Origin: Nitrososphaerota archaeon | Lineage (GTDB): Archaea > Thermoproteota > Nitrososphaeria_A > Caldarchaeales > Calditenuaceae | Length of the DNA stretch: 64,000 nucleotides | Direction: 5' to 3' | NCBI GenBank assembly: GCA_041641295.1 | Contig: JBEPYO010000001.1 | Coordinates: forward strand, 512,001-576,000 | Part shown: in pieces, positions 16,319 to 56,346 of the stretch | How the letters are laid out: each line of letters begins with the position of its first letter | How positions within the stretch are numbered: position 1 is the first letter of the stretch | The notes under the pieces: model-generated | Databases searched by the model: none | What the model was told of the DNA's origin: nothing | Seen by the model: the letters and a program-made list of their open reading frames with translations, nothing else | Translations under genes and position numbers: made by a program

Positions 16319-17725
16319 TTGCCAACCGTCCTCCTCGACTCCACACTGAGGGAAGGCGAGCTCTACAAGGTGTTACCCATCCAGAAGAAGCTCAGGGTCG
16401 CCAGCCTACTGGTGGAGGCGGGCCTGAAGCGGGTTGAAGTGACTGTCGACTATCCTCCAAGGACGTCTTACGAGGACGGTGCAAAATTGGTCAACTTCTT
16501 GGGTGATAACGGCGTCCAGGTCGTGATGCATGGGCGCGCATATAGGAACGATATCGAGGCGATGAGTAGGTATAACCTGTACGGGGTTGCCCTATACTTG
16601 GCCGTCTCCCAACTGCACCTAGACTACAAGCTAGGTGGTATGAACTATGATGATGCTAAGACTAGGATGTTGGAGGCGGTTGAGCTTGTCAAGCCTTTGG
16701 GGCTCCAGTATGTCCGAGTGACCTACGAGGATGCGTCGCGACTCTTCACCGAACGCAACTTCGACGTCCTCGACGACCTACTCAGGTTTACCGGTGAGCT
16801 GAAGTCTGCTGGCGCGACACTTCTCAGCGTGCCTGATACAGCTGGTCTCATGACGCCACGCGATGCTAGGAAGTTCATAGAGTATTGTATCGAGAGGAGC
16901 CGCCTCCCAGTCGCCGCCCACTTCCACAACGACTATGGCCTCGCATCAGCTAACACCATCGAGTCTATACTTGCGGGGGCTGCTGAGGCGCATGTTACAA
17001 TTTTAGGTATAGGTGATAGAAATGGAATAGCGGACCTCTACGAGGTTGTAGCGCCGCTACAAGATGTCTATGGCTATGACCTTGGAGTGAGGCGGGAGGA
17101 GCTGGCGCGGATTTATCGCGAGTTCTCCAGGCTTACCGGTGTGCAGATTCCTTGGCGGCACCCCCTCTCAGAGGAGGCGAGGACCATCAGGGCGGGCGTC
17201 CACCAGTCCATGGTCATCAAGAGGCCTGAAGGATACATGCCGCGAAAGAAGCTCGAATATGATGTGGATGCCGTGAAATATGCTGTGAGCCCATACATGA
17301 GCCACAAGCTGATTCTCGAGATAGCTAAGCTAAACGGCCACGACTTGAACGAGGTAGATGCCAGGAGGATTGTAGAGGAGATCGTCAAGAGGGTTGCGGC
17401 TACTGGGAGGAAGGGCTCTCCAAAAGAGCTAGCCCGATACCTTAGCGAGGCCTTAGGACGCGAGATCAGAGAAGACCTGGTGAGACGATTCTTCGGAGAG
17501 GAGCGGGCCTACATCCTCCTAAAGCTCCGCCCACAAGCAGATGCGCTACAGATTGTTCAAGAGCTCTCAACATGGGAGGAGGTAGAGTCCATCGACGAAG
17601 TATACGGGGACGTGGACATCGTTATTAAGGGACGCCTCAGGATAAACGGGGTCAACCTAGTCGACAAGCTCAGATCGAGCTTCCAAGAAGAGATAGAGGA
17701 GCTCAGAGTATTAATCACAGACTAG
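16319..17725 (+). CDS. Homocitrate synthase-like DRE-TIM metallolyase with C-terminal RAM (Lrp/AsnC ligand-binding) domain
   Basis: DSTLREGE, PDTAG, HFHNDYG, GIGDRNGIAD, AGVHQ; C-terminal AYILLK...EVYGDVDIVIK. Confidence 0.8.
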   Translation: MPTVLLDSTLREGELYKVLPIQKKLRVASLLVEAGLKRVEVTVDYPPRTSYEDGAKLVNFLGDNGVQVVMHGRAYRNDIEAMSRYNLYGVALYLAVSQLHLDYKLGGMNYDDAKTRMLEAVELVKPLGLQYVRVTYEDASRLFTERNFDVLDDLLRFTGELKSAGATLLSVPDTAGLMTPRDARKFIEYCIERSRLPVAAHFHNDYGLASANTIESILAGAAEAHVTILGIGDRNGIADLYEVVAPLQDVYGYDLGVRREELARIYREFSRLTGVQIPWRHPLSEEARTIRAGVHQSMVIKRPEGYMPRKKLEYDVDAVKYAVSPYMSHKLILEIAKLNGHDLNEVDARRIVEEIVKRVAATGRKGSPKELARYLSEALGREIREDLVRRFFGEERAYILLKLRPQADALQIVQELSTWEEVESIDEVYGDVDIVIKGRLRINGVNLVDKLRSSFQEEIEELRVLITD

Positions 17726-22348: not shown

Positions 22349-23506
22349 TCAGGCCATTATCGAGTGGTACCAGCGGAGTATGTATTCCGGAAGCTTGAGA
22401 CCTCTCTCCTGCAGCCTGTCAACCAAGTATAGCGGGAGTGGGCTGGTGGCAAACGCGGCCTTTAGGTAGAAGTCGTTCGGCCGCCCAGGCGAGTATCTTG
22501 AAGGTATGTAGAGTGTTTGATCCGATAGGGAGCCTATTGTTGAGTCCTTAGCACCCACTATTGAGACGACGTATCCACCCATCTTCTTAAAAGTCCTACA
22601 CCAAGATGCGACGACCTCGGTCTCACCACTGTGCGAGATCGCGATGAGAATATCCCCAGCCCTTGGAGGCGGCACATTAGTATCCCCCGCCACGTAGACG
22701 TGGTCGCCAATCGCCCTCTTCACATGCCCAAGCCTCACGCCAGTCATCCTTGCTACCTCCTGACTACTACCAAGCCCAGCCAAGAAGCACGTATTCCTCC
22801 GCTCCAACAGTTCGACAATCCAGTGCATAAAGTCAGACTTTATCACATTCTCTACAACCTCGTTGGTCTCCACCATTAACTGGTTTATCTTCTCGGAGAT
22901 GTTGAGAGGGCCGCTGTCCTCATAGATACACTCCGCAACTGCTTGGAGGAGAACCGAGGCCCCCAGAATAAAGACGTCCTCAAGAATACCATACTGCTTA
23001 AACTCGGAGGTCGAGGAATTCTCCTCAGAGACAGTACGCCCCTTAACACGGGTGCACGACCCATACTTCTGACCAAGCTTGCCCAGAGGTGAGTCAGGAT
23101 CGCTTGTAACAACATCTATCGTATAGTCTCCCATCTTCTCGGACCTTGAGATCGCAAGCGCCAGCTTCTGCGCATCGACGAGGGGCATAAGCGACCTGCC
23201 GCTACCCGATAGTATCAAGAGGCTGACCCTGCCGAACCTCTGCTTAAGCTTGGGCGCTGCCAAGTCAAAACTCCGATCAGGAAAACCAACATCGCTCCTG
23301 TCAACGACAACCTTTCCGCGATCCATCTTCGCGAGCTCGCTGCAGATTATGCTTACGGCCCCCTTACTCCTTCCCTCACCGTGGGGTACAATTACTCCGG
23401 CCGACTTTAGGTCCCGGTATAGCTCCGCCGCCTGGTTCAGGTCTATCTCTGAGAGGTTTTGAATAACGCTGTTCATATAGCCGAGGCTACTCTTCAGTAA
23501 CACCAT
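22349..23506 (-). CDS. Tandem SIS-domain protein (duplicated 6-phospho-3-hexuloisomerase/HxlB-like)
   Basis: Repeat 1 has GEGRS and SGSGRS. Repeat 2 has GLGSS...RLGH, GDILIAISHSGET and DSTIGSLSD. Confidence 0.7.
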   Translation of the reverse strand: MVLLKSSLGYMNSVIQNLSEIDLNQAAELYRDLKSAGVIVPHGEGRSKGAVSIICSELAKMDRGKVVVDRSDVGFPDRSFDLAAPKLKQRFGRVSLLILSGSGRSLMPLVDAQKLALAISRSEKMGDYTIDVVTSDPDSPLGKLGQKYGSCTRVKGRTVSEENSSTSEFKQYGILEDVFILGASVLLQAVAECIYEDSGPLNISEKINQLMVETNEVVENVIKSDFMHWIVELLERRNTCFLAGLGSSQEVARMTGVRLGHVKRAIGDHVYVAGDTNVPPPRAGDILIAISHSGETEVVASWCRTFKKMGGYVVSIVGAKDSTIGSLSDQTLYIPSRYSPGRPNDFYLKAAFATSPLPLYLVDRLQERGLKLPEYILRWYHSIMA

Positions 23507-23551: not shown

Positions 23552-24229
23552 CTAAGATTTGGTCCTACGGCGAATCAATGCGTGGGCGAGCCTCTTCTCA
23601 ACCCTAAAGTCCAGAACCTCGTTTCCCGTGATCCTGCTCCACTTCTCCAAGTCTCTCTCGGCTCCTTCATTATAGTCGGCCACTATGTGGATGATGCTCC
23701 CCTCCGGGAGCCCTTCAAGCCTGTCGGAGAGCACCATAAGGAGCTGGCTGCAGTCAATCCCAATCGCGGCGTGCACGTAGTCTGGAACTTCTCTGAAACA
23801 GACTATGCCCTTCTCGCTGATCATCCTCTCCACCTCTCCCCTTACCTCACTCCACCCCTTCAACCTCGTCAGGCAGTCATCCTTCAAGGCGGATACCTCG
23901 CAGAGCCAAGCAGCATCACAGAAGCCCCTCTGCAAAATCCATGGCCGTTCAACGGCCTCAGCATTGACCCGTTCTACCCTTAGGTCGAAGGGGGCCCTAA
24001 TATTCCCTAAGAATCTCCGGGATTCGATAAGGCATAGAGCCCTGTCCGCCGCAACCTCTTCACCGGGCTTCTTAACTCTTACAGAGGTTATCTTTCCCCA
24101 AAGGGTCTGAGTAATTGGAAGTATTCCGACTTGGAATACTCTGTCACGAATAGGGGTGAGCCACAGCATCTCTTCGAGAAAGTAGAGGTTGTTTCTGGAG
24201 AATCCGCAGCCGTGGATCTCCTCTATCAC
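23552..24229 (-). CDS. GcvH/LbpA-like domain (lipoyl-Lys absent) fused to a TusA/SirA-like domain
   Basis: H-protein pattern W...VG...Q...GKITSV...G..V...IESRR...RAPF...VN...P...W, then a TusA-like region IGIDCSQ...LPEGSIIHIVAD...AERDLEKWSRITGNEVL...IRR. Confidence 0.75.
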   Translation of the reverse strand: MIEEIHGCGFSRNNLYFLEEMLWLTPIRDRVFQVGILPITQTLWGKITSVRVKKPGEEVAADRALCLIESRRFLGNIRAPFDLRVERVNAEAVERPWILQRGFCDAAWLCEVSALKDDCLTRLKGWSEVRGEVERMISEKGIVCFREVPDYVHAAIGIDCSQLLMVLSDRLEGLPEGSIIHIVADYNEGAERDLEKWSRITGNEVLDFRVEKRLAHALIRRRTKS

Positions 24230-24254
24230 GATCTGAGATACCTGCTTCTTTGAC

Positions 24255-25100
24255 TTATTTTTCTATTGGTGTGCCAACTACGTTACCCCACTCGCTCCAG
24301 CTTCCATCATAGTTTCTGACTTTGGGGTATTTGAGCAGCTCCTTCAGAACGAACCAAGTTACGGATGACCGCTCACCTATTCTACAGTAGGTTATCACCT
24401 CTTTGTCGGGAGTCACGCCCAAGCCCTGGTAGAGCTTTCTCAACTCCTCGACTGGCTTGAATGTGCCGTCCTCGTTAAGGGCCTTAGCCCACGGTATATT
24501 CACCGCGCCAGGTATGTGGCCTCCCCTTTGCGCGTGCTCTGTAGGATACTCGGGAGGCGCTAAGATTTTGCCAGTGTACTCGTCAGGAGACCTCACATCA
24601 ACTAGGGCCACTGTGGGGCTTCCAAGCCTTGCGCGGACATCAGGTAGTAGAACCCTATACTCATACCGTACCTTGGTAACCTTGTAGGTGGTCGGGGCTG
24701 GGTTTGGTACCTCCTTCACCAGCTCCCTCTCCTCGGCTATCCACTTCTTCCTCCCGCCATCCATTATGCTCAGCTTCTCGTGGCCGTAAAGCCTAGCAAC
24801 CCAGAATGCGAAGGCAGCGAACCAGTTATTGAAATCTCCGTATAGGACTATGTGCGTGTCGTTCGAGATTCCACTCCGCGAGCAGAGAAGCTCGAACCCC
24901 TCCTTGCTTATGATGTTCCGCTCTATGGGGTCGTTGATGTCCTTCTTCCAGTCCCACAGGACTGCACCTCGGATATGCCCCTGGTAATAGGCTGTCTGAG
25001 GGTCGTAGTCGACTTCTACAATCCTGACGTCGGGCCTATCTAGGTTCTTCGCAACCCACTCAGTGGAGACGAGAACCGGTGATTCCTGCCTTTCGCTCAT
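24255..25100 (-). CDS. Tandem-domain rhodanese / thiosulfate sulfurtransferase (CysA/SseA/TtuD-like)
   Basis: LVSTEW, GHIRGA, DVRSPDEYTG, GHIPGA, active-site CRIGERS, YDGSWSEWGN. Confidence 0.95.
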   Translation of the reverse strand: MSERQESPVLVSTEWVAKNLDRPDVRIVEVDYDPQTAYYQGHIRGAVLWDWKKDINDPIERNIISKEGFELLCSRSGISNDTHIVLYGDFNNWFAAFAFWVARLYGHEKLSIMDGGRKKWIAEERELVKEVPNPAPTTYKVTKVRYEYRVLLPDVRARLGSPTVALVDVRSPDEYTGKILAPPEYPTEHAQRGGHIPGAVNIPWAKALNEDGTFKPVEELRKLYQGLGVTPDKEVITYCRIGERSSVTWFVLKELLKYPKVRNYDGSWSEWGNVVGTPIEK

Positions 25101-35977: not shown

Positions 35978-36121
35978 CTTCTGGAATCGAGTGCATCTAC
36001 TGATAAATAACCTTTATCCACCGAAATTAACCGGTGAAAGGGCTATGTGTCAAGGCCCTACACAATTGTTGTGAGGCTGGAATTCATATATATCGCGGGC
36101 TTTTTTAGAGGATGGATAAAG

Positions 36122-37051
36122 ATGCCATACAAGTCTCTGGCTGAGGCAATTGCTAAGCTGGAGGCTGAGAGACGCCCTTACGCTGTAGCTACTGTCGTCC
36201 GGGTTTCCGGCTCAAGTCTAGGGAAGCCCGGGTTTAAAATGGTTGTTGACGATCGGGGAGAGATCGTCTATGGGACTCTGGGGGGAGTCTGTCCGGAAGG
36301 CCCCATCATCTCTATAGCGCTAGAGTGTATAAGGGAGGAGGAGCCCAGGTTGGTTAAAGTGCATCTCGAGAGCACGGAGGAGGCGGTAAAGGGCATGGCC
36401 ACATCGGGGAGCAGGGATGAGATATTTGTCGAGACCTTCTGCGGCGGTACTATGGAGATTTTCGTAGACCCCATCACACCGGCGAGGCGCCTATTCATCA
36501 TAGGACAGGGAGGGAAGGACGACGTGGAGGAAGCCTTGGTAAGGTTTGGGAAGATCCTTGGCTTTGAGGTCTGGGTCATAGACCCTATGCCTATGCTGGA
36601 GGCTGAGCCTGACAAGTTGATATCGGATATAGACTTCGACCTCTCCAAGCTCGATATAGGGCCCCGGGACTGTGTCGTGGTCTTGACTAAGGGAGAGAGG
36701 GATGTTAAGGTTCTTGAAGCCATCTCGGATAAGACACCCATCTACTTGGGGCTTATGGCCAGTAGGAAGAGGGCTCTGCGGAACCTAGAGCTTCTCAGAG
36801 AGAGGGGAGTGCCTGAAGAGTTCATAGCAAGGATAAGCACGCCCGCGGGTATCGATATAGGCGCGAAGATGCCGGCGGAGATTGCTCTATCAATAATGGC
36901 CGAGGCCGTGGCTAGAATCAGGGGCGTACCTGTGGCTAGGAAGGCCGAGACCGCAGCCCAGCCCCAAACAACCCAAGAGGCTAGGACATCAATATCTCTA
37001 AGAGGGCTGTCCTGCGACGTCCCCGCCGCCACCCTCAAGGACAAGGGATAA
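36122..37051 (+). CDS. XdhC/CoxI-family molybdoenzyme maturation factor
   Basis: AVATVVRVSGSS, GTLGGVC, FCGGTMEIFVDP, YLGLMASRKR, PAGIDIGAKMPAEIALSI. Confidence 0.9.
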   Translation: MPYKSLAEAIAKLEAERRPYAVATVVRVSGSSLGKPGFKMVVDDRGEIVYGTLGGVCPEGPIISIALECIREEEPRLVKVHLESTEEAVKGMATSGSRDEIFVETFCGGTMEIFVDPITPARRLFIIGQGGKDDVEEALVRFGKILGFEVWVIDPMPMLEAEPDKLISDIDFDLSKLDIGPRDCVVVLTKGERDVKVLEAISDKTPIYLGLMASRKRALRNLELLRERGVPEEFIARISTPAGIDIGAKMPAEIALSIMAEAVARIRGVPVARKAETAAQPQTTQEARTSISLRGLSCDVPAATLKDKG

Positions 37052-41625: not shown

Positions 41626-43122
41626 TTAGACCGTATCACTTATGTAGTGATGTGGCTTACTCAGGGACTTGAAGAGCTGGGCTAGGAATATGGCCTGAGC
41701 CGCTGCGAGGAGTACCCCGAAGCCTACAAGGCCCAATACACCAGTATCGCTGGGTATTGGGAGTGGGTATGCTCTTCTGGGTGTTCCCGCACCTCCCATG
41801 AAGGCCATGAAGTAGAATAGGCCTAGCGCCGCCACAGCCGTCAATATTATGTGGATGTATGCCAGCTTCTTGTTCACTTCTGTTCCAAAGAGGAGCCTGT
41901 AGCTGTGGTAGAGGGCGCCTATCCAGATCAGGGATACTGCGAGGAGTATTGTCATTAAGTGGGCGGTTACCGCATAGGTTCCGTGGAGCCTGTAGGCCCA
42001 GCCAATTGTCCCCAGCTGCATCGCGAGGAAGCCATCGACTATGTAGACGGCAAAACCGAGCATGGCCGCTAGGGAGGCCGGAGTGAGCCTCAGACCAAAG
42101 GCATACGCAGTTGCAAGGACGTTAAAGACGGAAAAGGCCGCCCCAAAGCCTGTCAACCAGCTGGCTATCTGGCCCGTGTAGCTAAGCCCTGCCGGCTGTG
42201 ACGTGGGCATGGTGAAGAGGTGGTGTGGAAAAGCTATTACCGCCGCGGTTGAGTAGAAAACTATTGCGAAGATTCCCAGCTTCTCACTGTAGAGCCTCGG
42301 CTCCACAACTTCAGAGCTTCTCAATACCGCGGTATACCGCGGGATTAGCCAATAGACAGTCCCTATCGCCATTATACCCATCGCCTCCATCAAGTTGTGA
42401 GCCCAGATCCAGAAGGGATAGTTGAAGTTTAGGGGGTGTAAGACCCAGCCCGCCGAGCTTAGGGGGATTGCGCCGAGGAGCGCGAGTCCTATTGTTACTG
42501 CTCCAATGGCGATTGCGGTGCCGAGTGGGGGGATGATGAATATGTAGGGGAGCATACCCGCCATACCCGCGGGATTGAGGGTTCCCACGAACCGCTCTAG
42601 CACGAAGGCTTCCTGGGTCTTTCCACCGAACATTAGTCTCGCGAGCGACGCAGGATATAATGTAATGATAACGGCAAGGACTAGGATTATGCCCCAAACA
42701 AATATAGTGAGGCCCTCGAGGGACCAGAGCCCCTTCAATGCACCTGAAGCGGGAAGAGGGAACATTAACGTATAGCTTGTCCTTACTCCGAAGACGAATA
42801 TTGCTGCGAGTATTAGAAGAAGCCCAACGTTAAGGGTGAAGTATGAAGCTTTCACGAGAGGCCCCTTTACAGATTTACCGTAGCAGAATCCTACCCTCAG
42901 TAGGGATAGGCCCATCATGAGCTGGAAAAGTCCTCCGAAAGGCATCACAACTCCGTGGAATGTGAGGAGCATGTTGTAGTCCGCTATTCTTAGAGCGCCT
43001 GTTAGATGAGCGAGCACCATTGCAAGTCCTGCGGCTCCACCAGCGAAGAACCAGGCAATCGAGGAGAGAATCATCAGTCTCGGATAATATGTCAGGTCCT
43101 CAAGCCTGATTTGCGAGGCCAT
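41626..43122 (-). CDS. Heme-copper superfamily subunit I, nitric oxide reductase type (nNOR-like)
   Basis: FHG in helix II; WIWAHNLME (no cross-linking Tyr, Glu at +4); PHHLF; TAHLM (His/Met); GTPRR. Confidence 0.85.
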   Translation of the reverse strand: MASQIRLEDLTYYPRLMILSSIAWFFAGGAAGLAMVLAHLTGALRIADYNMLLTFHGVVMPFGGLFQLMMGLSLLRVGFCYGKSVKGPLVKASYFTLNVGLLLILAAIFVFGVRTSYTLMFPLPASGALKGLWSLEGLTIFVWGIILVLAVIITLYPASLARLMFGGKTQEAFVLERFVGTLNPAGMAGMLPYIFIIPPLGTAIAIGAVTIGLALLGAIPLSSAGWVLHPLNFNYPFWIWAHNLMEAMGIMAIGTVYWLIPRYTAVLRSSEVVEPRLYSEKLGIFAIVFYSTAAVIAFPHHLFTMPTSQPAGLSYTGQIASWLTGFGAAFSVFNVLATAYAFGLRLTPASLAAMLGFAVYIVDGFLAMQLGTIGWAYRLHGTYAVTAHLMTILLAVSLIWIGALYHSYRLLFGTEVNKKLAYIHIILTAVAALGLFYFMAFMGGAGTPRRAYPLPIPSDTGVLGLVGFGVLLAAAQAIFLAQLFKSLSKPHHYISDTV

Positions 43123-43123
43123 C

Positions 43124-43678
43124 TTAACCCACCACCTTGAACTTTGATAGCATCGCCGAGTGCCCGTCCCCGCAGAACTCCAAGCACCTGATGACATACT
43201 CGCCCGGCTCCACTAGATTTAGGACCAGTTCCTCCCTCATGCCAGGCAACAGCATCACAGTAGCTAGTATCTCCCCGCGCGGCGAGTAAATTGTTAGACT
43301 GTGGATGGTGTCATGTGCCCTCGCCACAAACTTCACAGTCCCGGCCTTGACCTCGTAGGTGTCGATCGTGTAACCCCACATGAAGGCTTCAACGTTTACG
43401 GCCTGCACGGGCTCTGAGGGTGTCTGACCCGGTGTGGCTGCTAGTGGCTGGAGCCATGGAATCCAAGGTATGCTGACCAAGTTAATCACTGCCCAAGCTA
43501 TGCCAACCCCCATCAGCCAAGCTACCTCCATCCCCCGAGCTGCCTTCTCGCCCAGAACCGCACCAGACAAGCTCCTACCCCTCCTGAAGGCGAGGAGCAG
43601 TAATAGTGTGAAGATGACTAGGAATGGCGCTGTTAGGTAGAGCAGGAGGAGTATTGCACCCCATCCCGTGCCCAGCAT
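43124..43678 (-). CDS. Heme-copper subunit II with CuA site
   Basis: Two TM helices, AFMWG, DTIH, CLEFCGDGHSAM (complete CuA ligand set). Confidence 0.92.
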   Translation of the reverse strand: MLGTGWGAILLLLYLTAPFLVIFTLLLLLAFRRGRSLSGAVLGEKAARGMEVAWLMGVGIAWAVINLVSIPWIPWLQPLAATPGQTPSEPVQAVNVEAFMWGYTIDTYEVKAGTVKFVARAHDTIHSLTIYSPRGEILATVMLLPGMREELVLNLVEPGEYVIRCLEFCGDGHSAMLSKFKVVG

Positions 43679-43819: not shown

Positions 43820-44482
43820 ATGGGTGGACGGGGCTTGAGGGTTCTTTTCCGCGACAGGGTCGATGCGGGTTTGAGGCTTGCGGAGGAGTTGAAGGACTAT
43901 CTGGGGCCAGGCTCAGTGGTCTATGGTATTGCGCGGGGCGGGGTCGTGGTTGCGGGTGTTGTGGCTCGAAAGATTGGCTGCGCCCTCGACGTCATAGTCG
44001 CGAAGAAGATTGGCGCCCCCTTAAACCCCGAGCTGGCAGCCGCAGCAGTCACCGAGTTTGGAGATGTGGAGGTGGAGAATGAGGTGGCGGCCTTCTATGG
44101 GATTTCGCGAGAGACGATAATGAAGAGGGCATCTGAGCATCTTCCCGAACTCCAGAGGCGGGCGGCGAGTTATAGAGGTGGCAGAGGGTTCATAGACCCG
44201 GCGGGGAAGGCTGTAGCCATCATAGACGACGGCCTCGCCACAGGCACAACAATGCTGGCGGCTGTCCAGTCAATAAAGAAGATGAACCCTTCAAAACTGA
44301 TAGCCTCGGCGCCAGTGGCCTCCACTACTGCCGCCTCTAGGCTCAGACCACTTGTGGACAAGATAGTATGCCCCTATGTGGAGGAGGAGTTCTACGCTGT
44401 AGGAGAGTTTTATGAAAATTTCTCACAAGTAACCGACGCTGAGGTTGTTAGATATTTGAGAGAAGGTGGGAGTCTCTATTAG
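43820..44482 (+). CDS. Phosphoribosyltransferase family protein
   Basis: FRDRVDAG, ARGGVVVA, KKIGAP, PRPP loop IIDDGLATG, FSQVTD. Confidence 0.92.
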   Translation: MGGRGLRVLFRDRVDAGLRLAEELKDYLGPGSVVYGIARGGVVVAGVVARKIGCALDVIVAKKIGAPLNPELAAAAVTEFGDVEVENEVAAFYGISRETIMKRASEHLPELQRRAASYRGGRGFIDPAGKAVAIIDDGLATGTTMLAAVQSIKKMNPSKLIASAPVASTTAASRLRPLVDKIVCPYVEEEFYAVGEFYENFSQVTDAEVVRYLREGGSLY

Positions 44483-45228
44483 GTGGTGTTTAGCGCTGCG
44501 TAACCCTTCTTCTCAAGCTCCTCGGCCAGCTCAAAGCCCCCAGACGCTATTATCCTCCCATCATACATAACATGCACAACATCGGGTTTTAGATAGTTTA
44601 GAATCCGCGCATAGTGGGTTATGACGAGGAATCCTGTCCCCTTCTCTCCGTTTATCTTCTTGATAGAGTTGGCCACAATCTTCACACTGTCTATGTCGAG
44701 TCCTGAGTCTGTTTCGTCTAGTATCGCGATGCGTGGGTTGAGCGTGGCGAGCTGGACGATCTCGCTCCTCTTCTTCTCTCCACCCGAGAAGCCCTCGTTC
44801 AAGTATCTCTTGGCGAAGGACTCATCCATCTGTAGTAGCTTGAAATTCTCGACGAGCAGCTTGTGGAACTCCGAGACCGAGAGCTTCTTTGTGCTCTCGC
44901 CATGGATTGAGAGGTAGGCGCGCCGGAGGAAGTTAGCCATAGTGACGCCGCTTATCTCCACCGGATACTGGAATGCTAGGAACAATCCGCGCTTCGCCCT
45001 AGCGTCGGGTGAGAGGCCGAGTATGCTCTCTCCGTCAAGGAGTATGTCGCCCTTCTCGACGGTGTATTTCGGGTGACCCATAATGACCTGCGCGGTCGTG
45101 CTTTTCCCGCTTCCATTCGGACCCATGAGAGCAGCTATCTCTCCCTCCTTTACTACTAGGTTCACACCTTTCAGTATCGTCTTCCCCTCGATGCCAGCCC
45201 AGAGATCCCTCAGCTCCAATATAGCCAT
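44479..45228 (-). CDS. sufC: Fe-S cluster assembly ATPase SufC
   Basis: GPNGSGKST, LAFQYPVEI, NEGFSGGEKKR, LDETDSGLDID, ITHY. Confidence 0.95.
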   Translation of the reverse strand: MAILELRDLWAGIEGKTILKGVNLVVKEGEIAALMGPNGSGKSTTAQVIMGHPKYTVEKGDILLDGESILGLSPDARAKRGLFLAFQYPVEISGVTMANFLRRAYLSIHGESTKKLSVSEFHKLLVENFKLLQMDESFAKRYLNEGFSGGEKKRSEIVQLATLNPRIAILDETDSGLDIDSVKIVANSIKKINGEKGTGFLVITHYARILNYLKPDVVHVMYDGRIIASGGFELAEELEKKGYAALNTT

Positions 45229-53641: not shown

Positions 53642-54775
53642 TTAGATTTCCGGCAGGTCAGCTAGGAAACGCTTGTTCAATGCATAGTAGGCCGTTGTCA
53701 TGAAGCCTACGATGAATATTATCAGGACTCCTAGGACTGCGATGACTAGCATGTATGGTATCTCTATGTAGAGGTTTGAGAAGACGAGTGGAGGTAATCC
53801 TTTATCTCCGAGCAATACGAGGTAGGGAAATCGTCCGGCGTCGTTGATGTATTCGCCGAGTATCACCACCAGAATTGCTAGTGGTCCGAGGCCGAGGGCG
53901 AGTCGTGTGACCTCACCAAGTCCCCGCTTGACTCTCCTCCAGATGACAAGAGACAATGCTGCTAGTGACGCTATGACCACCAGTTTACCGGTGAACATTG
54001 GTAGAAGGTTATATGTAGCTTGCACCCCTCCGAGGATGTTATTGTAGAGTAAGGGGGCTTTCTCGCTGAGGGATAATAGGTACCAGAGTCCGAGGATAGG
54101 CTGTAGTGCGAGGAATAGAACTCCGTGCCAAAGGCCAATCCACAGGAATTTCGGCGAGGTGTTACCCCTGATAGCGAAGAACGATGCAGTTATGAATCCT
54201 CCAACAGACATGGCCCCAGCCACCGTGTGGAGTATTAGGGGCGGGTAGATCGGGTTGAGGAAAACTTGGAGCCGCGCCAAGTCTCGTGAACCCTCTAGCG
54301 CCGCAGCGATTCCATACGGAGATGTTATTTCGGCGAAGATGTATCTGAAGCCCATGGGAACCGCGAAGCCTGAAACCGCCATTATGAACCCAATAACTAC
54401 GTGAATACTGGGCTTGACTTTGCCCCATGTATACCAGAACAGGGCTATGCTAGGTATCCGGATTATTATCGCAGAGAGTGCGATGAGGATTGGGTAGAAG
54501 AGAGTGTCTGTGGCGATGGCTAGGAGGGTTGGGAATAGCCCTGCAAGGATGACGGTAATGATTGTCCCCCATACACCGCTGAAAAGTTCATGCACGATAA
54601 GGATTTTGAATACACGTCTCGCCATGATTTCGAGTGAGGGGTCACTTCGACGCCACGCCAGATAACGGGCCATCGCAGATATCCAGCCCGTGCCTATTGT
54701 AATGTTGACGAAGGCTATGTGAACGAGTGTAGCCAATCCTAGGAGATTAAAGCTGAAAAGCTCTGACGTGTTCAC
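53642..54775 (-). CDS. Cytochrome bd oxidase CydA' (CydA-homologous second subunit)
   Basis: LVHIAFV, SGVWG, ILHT, GEYINDAGRFPY. Degenerate CydA fold overlapping the cydA stop. Confidence 0.8.
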   Translation of the reverse strand: MNTSELFSFNLLGLATLVHIAFVNITIGTGWISAMARYLAWRRSDPSLEIMARRVFKILIVHELFSGVWGTIITVILAGLFPTLLAIATDTLFYPILIALSAIIIRIPSIALFWYTWGKVKPSIHVVIGFIMAVSGFAVPMGFRYIFAEITSPYGIAAALEGSRDLARLQVFLNPIYPPLILHTVAGAMSVGGFITASFFAIRGNTSPKFLWIGLWHGVLFLALQPILGLWYLLSLSEKAPLLYNNILGGVQATYNLLPMFTGKLVVIASLAALSLVIWRRVKRGLGEVTRLALGLGPLAILVVILGEYINDAGRFPYLVLLGDKGLPPLVFSNLYIEIPYMLVIAVLGVLIIFIVGFMTTAYYALNKRFLADLPEI

Positions 54776-56346
54776 TCCTCAACACCCGCCCCTCTTCTCA
54801 GTAGTTTAACAAATTCGAGCGGCTTAACTGCGACGAGGTACATCCCATAGAGGCCACCCAAGGCCATGGCTGCGAAAAGAAGCGTAAAAGCAATGATAAC
54901 AGGGGTGGAAAAAGATACCGGCGTTACAAGCTCTTCAGGATATAGGAGCCCGTAGACCGTCCACGGCTTTCTGCCAACCTCGCGAACATACCACCCAAGG
55001 GCCGAGGCTAGAATAGAACCCAGCAGAGTCAGCAGGGCTAAAAGGAATAACAGGTTCTTCCCACCCAAGCGCTTCTCTATAATTCGTACAACACTAGAAA
55101 TAAGCCCCAAGTTGTGGACGGAGCCAGATAGTGCCACAACCGAGACGAGAGCTATGACGCCTGCGGCTATTTTTGTGTAGTACGCCGCGTGTATTGTAGG
55201 TAGCCGTTTCTCAGCCTTGGAGAGGTCTTGGAGGCAGAGGTCTGAGAGCCTGATGCTTCCGGAGGGGCCTGGTCTATAATCTGGAACAACTTCGTAGGCT
55301 ATATCCGCAATAGTCTCGTCCCCGTGCTTTCCGCATGCTCGCCGGAGCTCATCAAATCCTTGAATCGGTCTAGACGGGTCTCCATAGGCGAGGAAGGCTA
55401 GTAAGGGGTTTTGGATGGTTGTTTCGGCTCCCTCCATCATGGCAAACTTAGTGGGCATGAAGGCTGCGACGGCTTTCCCCATGTTGTCACCGAAGACGAT
55501 CGGCTGTATAATGAGTAGTACTAGCAGAATGGGTAGGAAAGACTTGAGGAGTTTTACGTATTTCTGGTCCCCTGTCCTGAAGTGTTTGTACGAAAATGCG
55601 GCGGCTGCTAGTGCTATGCCAATGATGACGGCTGCTGTTACGTTGTGGAGCACGCTCGCTAGAGCATATGGGGACGAGAGGGCGATATATGGGTCGCTTA
55701 GCGATAGGCCGACTGCCTTGGCTATCTCAGGGTTCTGCAGTATCTGTGACGCTGTGCCAACTGTGAGGAGGCTATCAACTAGGGCTAGCTTGACAGTTAC
55801 AAGAACGGGTATTTGGAATGCGGCTGGACCGTATTCAGGGAGGAAGGGGTAGAGGACGGAGGCCAGCGGACCAGTCCCCCACGGTACGTTCAGCCAGCTG
55901 TTAACCATTGTTATCAGCATCCCGGAAAAGGCTGCAAAGACGAAATACCCAGCCATTAAGCCGATGCTGACCCACATCCTCACCCATCTCAGGGTCACGA
56001 TAAAGGCTATGAGGAAAACGATTTCTCCGATGAAGGCAGCCAACTCTAGTACTAGGGGTGTAAAGGCTACGGTTGATATTGCATAGATGGAGCCAGGCCA
56101 TGCCTGAACAAGCCCAAACTCAACCAGTGTGCCTGTTATGGCCCCGAGGGCGAAGTTGACGGCTAAAACACCTGTCGCAATCCGCGCAGCCACATAGTAG
56201 TCATTATCCTTAGTCCTAGCCCATTTGTATAGAAACGCTGAAATGACGAAGGGAAAACCCAGCGTCACGGATACGAAGACCGCGTGTAGATAGATTCCTA
56301 GGATGCTTACGGGCATCAGAGCAGAAACGTTATCATAGGCTGCCAC
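54772..56346 (-). CDS. cydA: Cytochrome bd quinol oxidase subunit I
   Basis: YLHAVFV, FALGAITG, ELAAFIGE, NSWLNVP, LHN, PTKFAMMEG, GWYVREVGRKPW. Confidence 0.92.
   Translation of the reverse strand: MAAYDNVSALMPVSILGIYLHAVFVSVTLGFPFVISAFLYKWARTKDNDYYVAARIATGVLAVNFALGAITGTLVEFGLVQAWPGSIYAISTVAFTPLVLELAAFIGEIVFLIAFIVTLRWVRMWVSIGLMAGYFVFAAFSGMLITMVNSWLNVPWGTGPLASVLYPFLPEYGPAAFQIPVLVTVKLALVDSLLTVGTASQILQNPEIAKAVGLSLSDPYIALSSPYALASVLHNVTAAVIIGIALAAAAFSYKHFRTGDQKYVKLLKSFLPILLVLLIIQPIVFGDNMGKAVAAFMPTKFAMMEGAETTIQNPLLAFLAYGDPSRPIQGFDELRRACGKHGDETIADIAYEVVPDYRPGPSGSIRLSDLCLQDLSKAEKRLPTIHAAYYTKIAAGVIALVSVVALSGSVHNLGLISSVVRIIEKRLGGKNLLFLLALLTLLGSILASALGWYVREVGRKPWTVYGLLYPEELVTPVSFSTPVIIAFTLLFAAMALGGLYGMYLVAVKPLEFVKLLRRGAGVEE

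Follow-up and report, generated by a model that had tools for sequence, protein, structure and literature searches.

A rhodanese gene of the CRIGER type followed by a gene for an H-protein–TusA fusion was found on the minus strand of the window, by which we mean the whole 64,000-nucleotide (nt) stretch analysed here (positions 512,001 to 576,000 of contig JBEPYO010000001.1, GenBank assembly GCA_041641295.1, from a Nitrososphaerota archaeon of the Calditenuaceae). The fusion lies downstream of the rhodanese on the same strand, with a gap of 25 nt. That the two products are partners is well supported genetically and, in our judgement, quite likely, and the pair probably hands sulfur on via cysteines without lipoate. 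In the reading that we prefer, to which we give about an even chance, the fusion would be the dedicated persulfide acceptor of the rhodanese, independent of lipoate and of the sHdr system, with Cys160 taking the sulfur and Cys8 and Cys144 resolving or relaying it. The features concerned are as follows.

24255..25100, minus strand: tandem-domain thiosulfate sulfurtransferase (TST; rhodanese), 281 amino acids (aa), CysA2/SseA-like (Pfam PF00581, E 6e-37, two stretches)
24369..24386, minus strand: CRIGER active-site loop of the rhodanese with catalytic Cys239, read from the sequence (TST-type motif according to PMC6856128)
23552..24229, minus strand: LbpA-like–TusA-like fusion, 225 aa, GTG start, open reading frame intact (Pfam, AlphaFold, purifying selection)
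23795..24229, minus strand: LbpA-type H-protein domain of the fusion, residues about 1-145 (GCV_H match, Z 17.8 to E. coli apo-H)
24206..24208, minus strand: Cys8, N-terminal LbpA-type cysteine in IHGCGF (homologue alignment)
24014..24016, minus strand: Arg72 (AGA) at the lipoyl-lysine position (aligned with the lipoyl-Lys of GcvH structures)
23798..23800, minus strand: Cys144, C-terminal LbpA-type cysteine at the domain junction in KGIVCF (homologue alignment)
23564..23797, minus strand: TusA-fold domain of the fusion, residues 145-222, CPxP reduced to G-x-[DE]-C (structure match to TusA and YeeD)
23750..23752, minus strand: Cys160, equivalent of the TusA persulfide cysteine, in IGIDCSQL (homologue alignment)

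Both open reading frames, the CRIGER loop, the gap and the three cysteine motifs of the fusion are as described in a first-pass annotation made from the sequence alone. That annotation had placed an IESRR motif at 24014-24025; the arginine at the lipoyl-lysine site stands, but these coordinates encode only ESRR, the isoleucine lying one codon earlier. It had also considered that the fusion might be a read-through product. The fusion is not a read-through or assembly artefact, because 32 of the 76 class genomes have a full-length homologue, contigs from three DNA runs (which may be the window's own source) cover the pair with 0 differences, and the ratio of nonsynonymous to synonymous substitution rates (dN/dS) is low within the genus, where the H domain gave 0.11-0.18 and the TusA domain 0.01-0.07 (6 pairs, 4 genomes).

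Pfam matched GCV_H at residues 15-119 of the fusion (E 1.5e-12, over the cut-off) and TusA at residues 157-220 (E 2.1e-5; 24.7 bits, under the cut-off of 28.6). The AlphaFold model had a predicted local distance difference test score (pLDDT) of 94.9 and a predicted template modelling score (pTM) of 0.88 (range over two models, 92-95 and 0.86-0.88). The predicted fold matched H-proteins with Z 17.8 and a root mean square deviation (rmsd) of 1.8 over 127 aligned residues, E. coli TusA with Z 12.0 and rmsd 1.9 over 77 aligned residues, and YeeD with Z 10.7, and the H-protein and TusA matches cover separate ranges of the protein. Cys160 stands at the start of helix 1 of the TusA domain in the model, which is the place of the active-site cysteine of TusA.

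The partner enzyme, with its two rhodanese domains and CRxGx[R/T] loop, is by sequence an ordinary TST-type rhodanese, for which thiosulfate:cyanide sulfurtransferase activity is predicted. The CRIGER loop was unchanged in all 24 rhodaneses aligned, and the best PDB matches were 1uar (E 4e-95) and 3aax/3hwi; the two domains and the loop are shared with the CRIGER tandem rhodaneses CysA2, CysA3 and SseA of Mycobacterium tuberculosis and with 1uar (E 4e-91 to 1e-78). It is the only two-domain rhodanese detected in the genome. The sole further rhodanese-domain match is in a protein (G000:C1:1457593-1458861, plus strand) that by eye is MoeB-like: a MoeB/UbaA-like adenylyltransferase fused at its C-terminal end to a rhodanese domain with a CHSGQR motif, in the manner of Uba4/MOCS3.

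Residues were counted in 136 distinct fusions taken from loci and in a wider set of 197 sequences. Cys8, Cys144 and Cys160 were present in all 136 fusions, and in 195, 196 and 197 of the 197 sequences, respectively. The PxP after the TusA cysteine is missing throughout the family; the window copy has CSQL, and the commonest followers of the cysteine are SAV, AAT, TAV and SQL. At position 72, lysine was found in 76 of the 136 homologues, arginine in 57, asparagine in 2 and valine in 1, a pooled ratio that is skewed by the metagenome scan, which was made with one protein and sampled one soil clade (80 of 99 matches kept); with sequence weighting in the wider set, the frequencies were 0.57 for arginine and 0.35 for lysine. 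The window copy, with Arg72, is by its sequence one that cannot be lipoylated at residue 72, and to this extent the lysine loss pointed out in the first-pass annotation holds. Because 76 homologues keep the lysine, its loss is not a hallmark of the family, and the site is better read as a drifting basic residue. Lysine retained in orthologues was one of the outcomes that the first-pass annotation had named as refuting its proposal, and in part it has come true. In family f2 the glutamate of the ESxK motif is gone as well in 13 of 16 cases. Nor does the lysine track lipoate ligase: in a comparison of 30 loci from family f58, which we infer to be the soil ammonia-oxidiser family Nitrososphaeraceae, a ligase match over the cut-off was found in 3 of 10 genomes with lysine and in 5 of 20 with arginine (the unpublished genome G492 is one of the five). 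As the lysine does not track the ligase, we continue to infer that the family works independently of lipoate.

A quick tree of H domains (119 rows, 148 columns, with 53 of 116 inner branches open) has a branch, with an SH-aLRT (Shimodaira–Hasegawa-like approximate likelihood ratio test) value of 91, that keeps the 37 fusion domains together on the same side, when 8 stand-alone rows within the fusion group are taken as probable fusion fragments. With modest support, the fusion domains sit beside cysteine-bearing proteins of the ESGKWVGP (LbpA) type and apart from ESVKA GcvHs. The tree and the invariant cysteine pair support an LbpA-derived H domain, in agreement with the first-pass annotation.

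The full-length fusion occurs in families f1 and f2 of the class, where the 32 positive genomes fall, and was not found in families f3 and f4 or genus g2 among the 76 class genomes. Of 341 other genomes sampled across the phylum, 5 carry it. In f58 the count is 97 of 121 (unpublished G492 and G514 included), but none of the 13 genomes of genus g174 of that family has it. An exhaustive sequence-cluster search returned about 30 clusters at 50% identity spanning both domains, as compared with 19 proteins in the initial word-based search; 10 clusters were looked up, and some hold members labelled Ca. Nitrosocosmicus. Named relatives, with 87-89% identity, carry the labels Calditenuaceae or uncultured archaeon, which makes the host a hot-spring archaeon of the Caldarchaeales type. 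Metagenomes contributed 80 fusion loci from one further soil clade, and clusters with automatic GCV_H/TusA names and 76-135 members are present in the ESM Atlas. One homologue in an otherwise archaeal cluster (P0180) is labelled as a Saccharimonadales bacterium and is probably mis-binned. Databases often annotate the fusion as 'glycine cleavage system H protein'. A search of the open literature, main texts only, turned up no account of such a fusion, and the accessible text of PMC10332631 does not mention TusA; the fusion is apparently undescribed, as the first-pass annotation had supposed.

A CRIGER rhodanese lies within 700 nt of the fusion at 110 of the 136 loci, in tandem upstream at 26 and convergent downstream at 84; of the remaining loci, 13 have no adjacent rhodanese and 13 end too early to judge. 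Across the class, an orthologue of the rhodanese was present in all 32 fusion-positive genomes and in 3 of 44 fusion-negative ones, counts in which kin are not independent and which reflect a few events. The rhodaneses tested from the fusion-less genus g174 (5 loci, in 4 of 13 genomes) and from g157 group apart from the linked ones, in a clade (SH 100) that also holds a paralogue from a genome with the fusion. This suggests that the linked orthologue was lost there together with the fusion. The linkage anticipated in the first-pass annotation was thus borne out. The predicted complex of rhodanese and fusion scored 0.46 as compared with 0.00 for the best control, with at least 89% of contacts shared between runs and a partner pLDDT of at least 86; the mark applied is reached by 116 of 157 solved pairs and 2 of 215 mismatched pairs, but with a score no higher than 0.60 it is reached by 18 of the 157 solved pairs and by both of the passing mismatches, so that the model argues weakly for the partnership.

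Other neighbours of the fusion vary by lineage and include a tRNA intron endonuclease, EF-2, TFIIB, NADH dehydrogenase and a GlmS-like gene. A full-length, strong COX1 match (E <1e-100) was found in 34 of 35 rhodanese-positive class genomes as compared with 1 of 41 others, a pattern that is confounded by kinship and points to the pair belonging to oxygen-respiring cells. The pair apparently recurs in many oxygen-respiring archaea, soil ammonia oxidisers included.

The host genome, which is 93.8% complete, gave no match to lipoate ligase (LplA, PF21948), LipA, GcvP (PF02347) or sHdrB1, and lipoate ligase was likewise not found in any of the 8 genomes of the host genus. A canonical-looking, orphan GcvH of the ESVK type (G000:C1:1134767-1135210, plus strand) is kept in the genus although none of its 8 genomes has a ligase match. 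Two ordinary TusAs are present in the host genome, one in a DsrE2-TusA-SQR-like-ArsR operon (G000:C1:754352-756629; SQR and ArsR labelled by eye) and the other, YeeD-like, divergent from a gene for a YeeE-type transporter (G000:C1:1023730-1025307). YeeE was rejected as an obligatory partner of the pair, because several genomes with the fusion gave no YeeE match and genus g2, which lacks the fusion, has the gene.

Among known carriers, the fusion would act much as LbpA and TusA combined. With the LbpA of the sHdr pathway (Cao et al. 2018, PMC6067878) it shares the H-protein fold, a terminal cysteine pair of the Cys8/Cys144 type, an aromatic-x-Gly past the lysine site and the company of TusA and a rhodanese; its isoelectric point of 6.8, as against 4.6 for the GcvH of this genome, is a further likeness. 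The lipoyl-Lys and the cysteines are defining features of LbpA (PMC6067878), and the lysine is strictly conserved there, unlike at position 72 of the fusion. LbpA is also a stand-alone protein, lipoylated in vivo and required for sulfur oxidation, whose gene lies within or close to an shdr cluster that has a ligase, whereas the fusion carries a TusA domain, lies outside shdr clusters and, in the host genus, belongs to genomes that gave no ligase match. With the TusA/YeeD/SirA carriers (PF01206) it shares the fold and the invariant cysteine at the start of helix 1, and it differs from them in the absent PxP, in His181 and His216, in the H domain in front and in its sub-cut-off Pfam score. From GcvH, whose fold it shares, the window copy differs by the missing lipoyl-Lys, in a genome with a separate ESVK-type GcvH and no GcvP match, and its scores are far under the NCBIfam GcvH cut-offs (48.9 vs 117 bits and 32.1 vs 115.85 bits). 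By sequence and gene context, the fusion would be classed neither as LbpA, nor as GcvH, nor as a CPxP carrier.

In the scheme that we favour, an LbpA-type domain and a TusA domain would have been joined, and the product would now need neither lipoate nor the sHdr complex. The rhodanese would first load its Cys239 with sulfane sulfur from one of the substrates expected of its family (thiosulfate, polysulfide or 3-mercaptopyruvate). Transfer of the persulfide from Cys239 to Cys160 of the TusA domain is the likely second step. The third step is more tentative and falls somewhat short of an even chance: Cys8 and Cys144, acting as a built-in dithiol, would take over or resolve the persulfide, much as dihydrolipoate does with rhodaneses in vitro. 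Sulfide would then be released with a disulfide left behind, or the sulfur would be passed to a sulfur-consuming pathway. This chemistry is modelled on published work, which reports that sulfur passes from rhodanese to TusA in Allochromatium and is bound at the CPxP cysteine (10.1101/2023.12.18.572138), that rhodaneses can use dihydrolipoate to accept their sulfur (PMC6067878), and that the two cysteines of LbpA are close enough for a disulfide in a model, while lipoylation does not need them (10.64898/2026.10.01.755906). The most likely physiological setting would be sulfane-sulfur handling in oxygen-respiring cells. A bolder version, in which the LbpA cysteine pair is a redox-active dithiol replacing lipoamide and the rhodanese and fusion together form a cofactor-free, two-protein thiosulfate/sulfane-sulfur reductase, is possible, and we hold it to be the less probable outcome.

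Several observations weigh against the fusion being a dedicated, lipoate-independent acceptor. Family f5, which we take to be aerobic, has no full-length fusion in 56 genomes, so that oxygen respiration alone would not explain the range of the fusion. Genus g3 carries fusion and rhodanese unlinked, and three genomes have the rhodanese without the fusion; in the fusion-less genome G044 of f4 a CRIGER rhodanese stands directly upstream of sufC-sufB (L207:691-4005), a hint at iron–sulfur (Fe-S) assembly as a sulfur sink. The two ordinary TusAs of the host genome could also accept sulfur. Some family members could be lipoylated, as lysine is kept in 76 of the 136 homologues, and the reactivity of the TusA cysteine may differ with the PxP lost. 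Cys144 and Cys160 lie at opposite ends of the first strand of the TusA fold and, judging from this topology, may be too distant for transfer in cis. What the sequences show is the architecture, the conservation, the linkage and the lack of matches for lipoylation and sHdr genes; sulfur transfer is the proposed function.

In the alternative that survives best, sulfur would be carried by Cys160 alone. Cys8 and Cys144 would be structural, either joined in a stabilising disulfide or binding a metal (perhaps as Cys2His2, together with His181 and His216), and the H domain would serve for docking to the rhodanese or to a sulfur-consuming enzyme of molybdenum cofactor (Moco) synthesis, tRNA thiolation or the SUF system. 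We consider this doubtful, though deserving of weight. His181 and His216, which lie on the sheet of the TusA domain, occur in 170 and 176 of the 197 homologues, respectively, where sHdr-linked stand-alone TusAs have Glu and Arg, and the pair 181-216 ranked 6th in a covariation analysis of the 197-sequence set, of low depth (effective number of sequences, Neff, 81), from which no consistent inter-domain surface emerged. The histidines are replaced in 27 and 21 of the 197 homologues, however, while the cysteines stay. The pTM of 0.88 would suggest a rigid packing of the two domains. The cysteine pair is found in mesophilic soil lineages too, so that thermostability alone would not account for it. 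Candidate sinks in the genome are MoaE, a SufS-like desulfurase, a CysK-like enzyme and the MoeB-rhodanese protein, and in M. tuberculosis molybdenum genes are found close to rhodaneses of the CysA2 type (PMC6856128); against this, no biosynthetic gene is among the conserved neighbours of the pair. The first-pass annotation had brought in xdhC (36047-37051) and sufC (44482-45228) of the window as possible links to cofactor sulfuration. Both genes are present, about 11 and 19 kb from the pair, and the link was dropped in view of this distance and of flanking genes that differ between lineages.

The fusion might instead be an allosteric activator of the rhodanese or a sulfane-sulfur sensor and not a stoichiometric carrier, which we regard as improbable. 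The precedent is the CRIGER rhodanese SseA of M. tuberculosis, which is activated by the product of the adjacent gene, Rv3284 (PMC12375888); the pairing with a neighbour's product is alike in both cases, although Rv3284 is SufE-like and the partner here is an LbpA–TusA fusion. The predicted complex, for what it adds, would fit such a role. Three invariant cysteines, one of them at the TusA persulfide position, exceed what an activator would need, and activator and carrier roles are compatible with each other.

More improbable still is a lipoylated LbpA component of sHdr-type sulfur oxidation with degenerate arginine copies, the role that the first-pass annotation had connected with LbpA and that its proposed search for sHdr and lipoate ligase genes in the host genome failed to uphold. 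The grouping of the H domain near LbpA-type proteins and the lysine kept in 76 homologues speak for it, and the genome holds an HdrA-like protein of 1128 aa with a CCG-domain protein and EtfA/B-like genes (G000:C1:730233-736504, minus strand), a cluster with no sHdrB1 match. True sHdr clusters also exist in the class, separate from the fusion and with their own Lys-bearing LbpA, ligase and CPxP TusA side by side, and with LbpA and TusA adjacent such a cluster is a plausible origin of the fusion. A profile of the fusion TusA domain scored 44-48 bits against sHdr-linked TusAs, 45 against a DsrE/SQR-linked TusA and 11.5 against a YeeE-linked one; as it fails to part the first two, an sHdr origin of the TusA domain is not shown. 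The points against it are that sHdrB1 occurs in 4 of the 76 class genomes, 3 of which are among the 32 fusion-positive ones and have their own Lys-bearing LbpA and CPxP TusA, that arginine-bearing copies are under purifying selection, that the lysine does not track the ligase, that the host genome has no match to ligase or LipA, and that the motif glutamate is also lost in most f2 copies. The sHdr-like clusters (L079, L080, L081 and L077 of G006, G018, G026 and G411, and one in G007) are patchy over two families of Caldarchaeales and contain dsrE, lbpA, lipoate ligase, tusA, hdrC/B/A-like and ArsR genes, with a molybdopterin oxidoreductase nearby and, in some cases, YeeE; genomes carrying them are possible sulfur oxidisers. 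A lineage-restricted, decayed GcvH or a chance adjacency, to which Arg72, one base from lysine (AGA/AAA), and the sub-cut-off TusA domain could be put down, is refuted by the distribution in 32 of 76 class and 97 of 121 f58 genomes, the cysteine invariance, dN/dS of at most 0.18 and an adjacency kept in two orientations.

Some further observations concern the surroundings of the pair. It is followed in the window by a gene for a double-SIS protein of 385 aa (22349-23506, minus strand), hexulose-phosphate isomerase-like under the cut-off. The same arrangement is seen in 7 of the 8 genomes of the genus, with the gene 2 kb further on in the eighth, and the gene is also nearby in G036; in one relative, about 3 kb of extra open reading frames lie between the fusion and the SIS gene (L033:8883-11625, the same genome stretch as L001). 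At soil loci such as L102, L104, L110 and L112, the fusion has a neighbour that falls in the same cluster as a 729-aa EF-2 and that in some loci encodes about 1,260 aa, where an intein or another insertion is our guess. Elsewhere in the window are a divergent COX1-family protein (41626-43197, minus strand, E 1.5e-34), two tandem genes like cytochrome bd subunit I (53642-56346, minus strand) and an HMGL-like TIM-barrel protein of the homocitrate/isopropylmalate synthase type (16319-17725, plus strand) with a weak C-terminal match to the Lrp/AsnC ligand-binding domain (E 0.006). A scan for sigma-70 promoters and terminators, a model unsuited to archaea, gave only matches at chance level.

The fusion is a natural, small and soluble protein that keeps the LbpA cysteines without the lysine and has a TusA domain of its own, which makes the question of the LbpA cysteines directly testable; if the dithiol reading is true, it would be a natural experiment on the role of the unexplained cysteines in all LbpA proteins, and a thiosulfate/sulfane-sulfur reductase of this kind would exist in Caldarchaeales and in most soil ammonia-oxidising archaea. 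The dedicated-acceptor reading would name a physiological acceptor for the widespread archaeal CRIGER rhodaneses, and it would correct the common annotation as a glycine cleavage H protein of a family found in most genomes of an inferred soil ammonia-oxidiser lineage.

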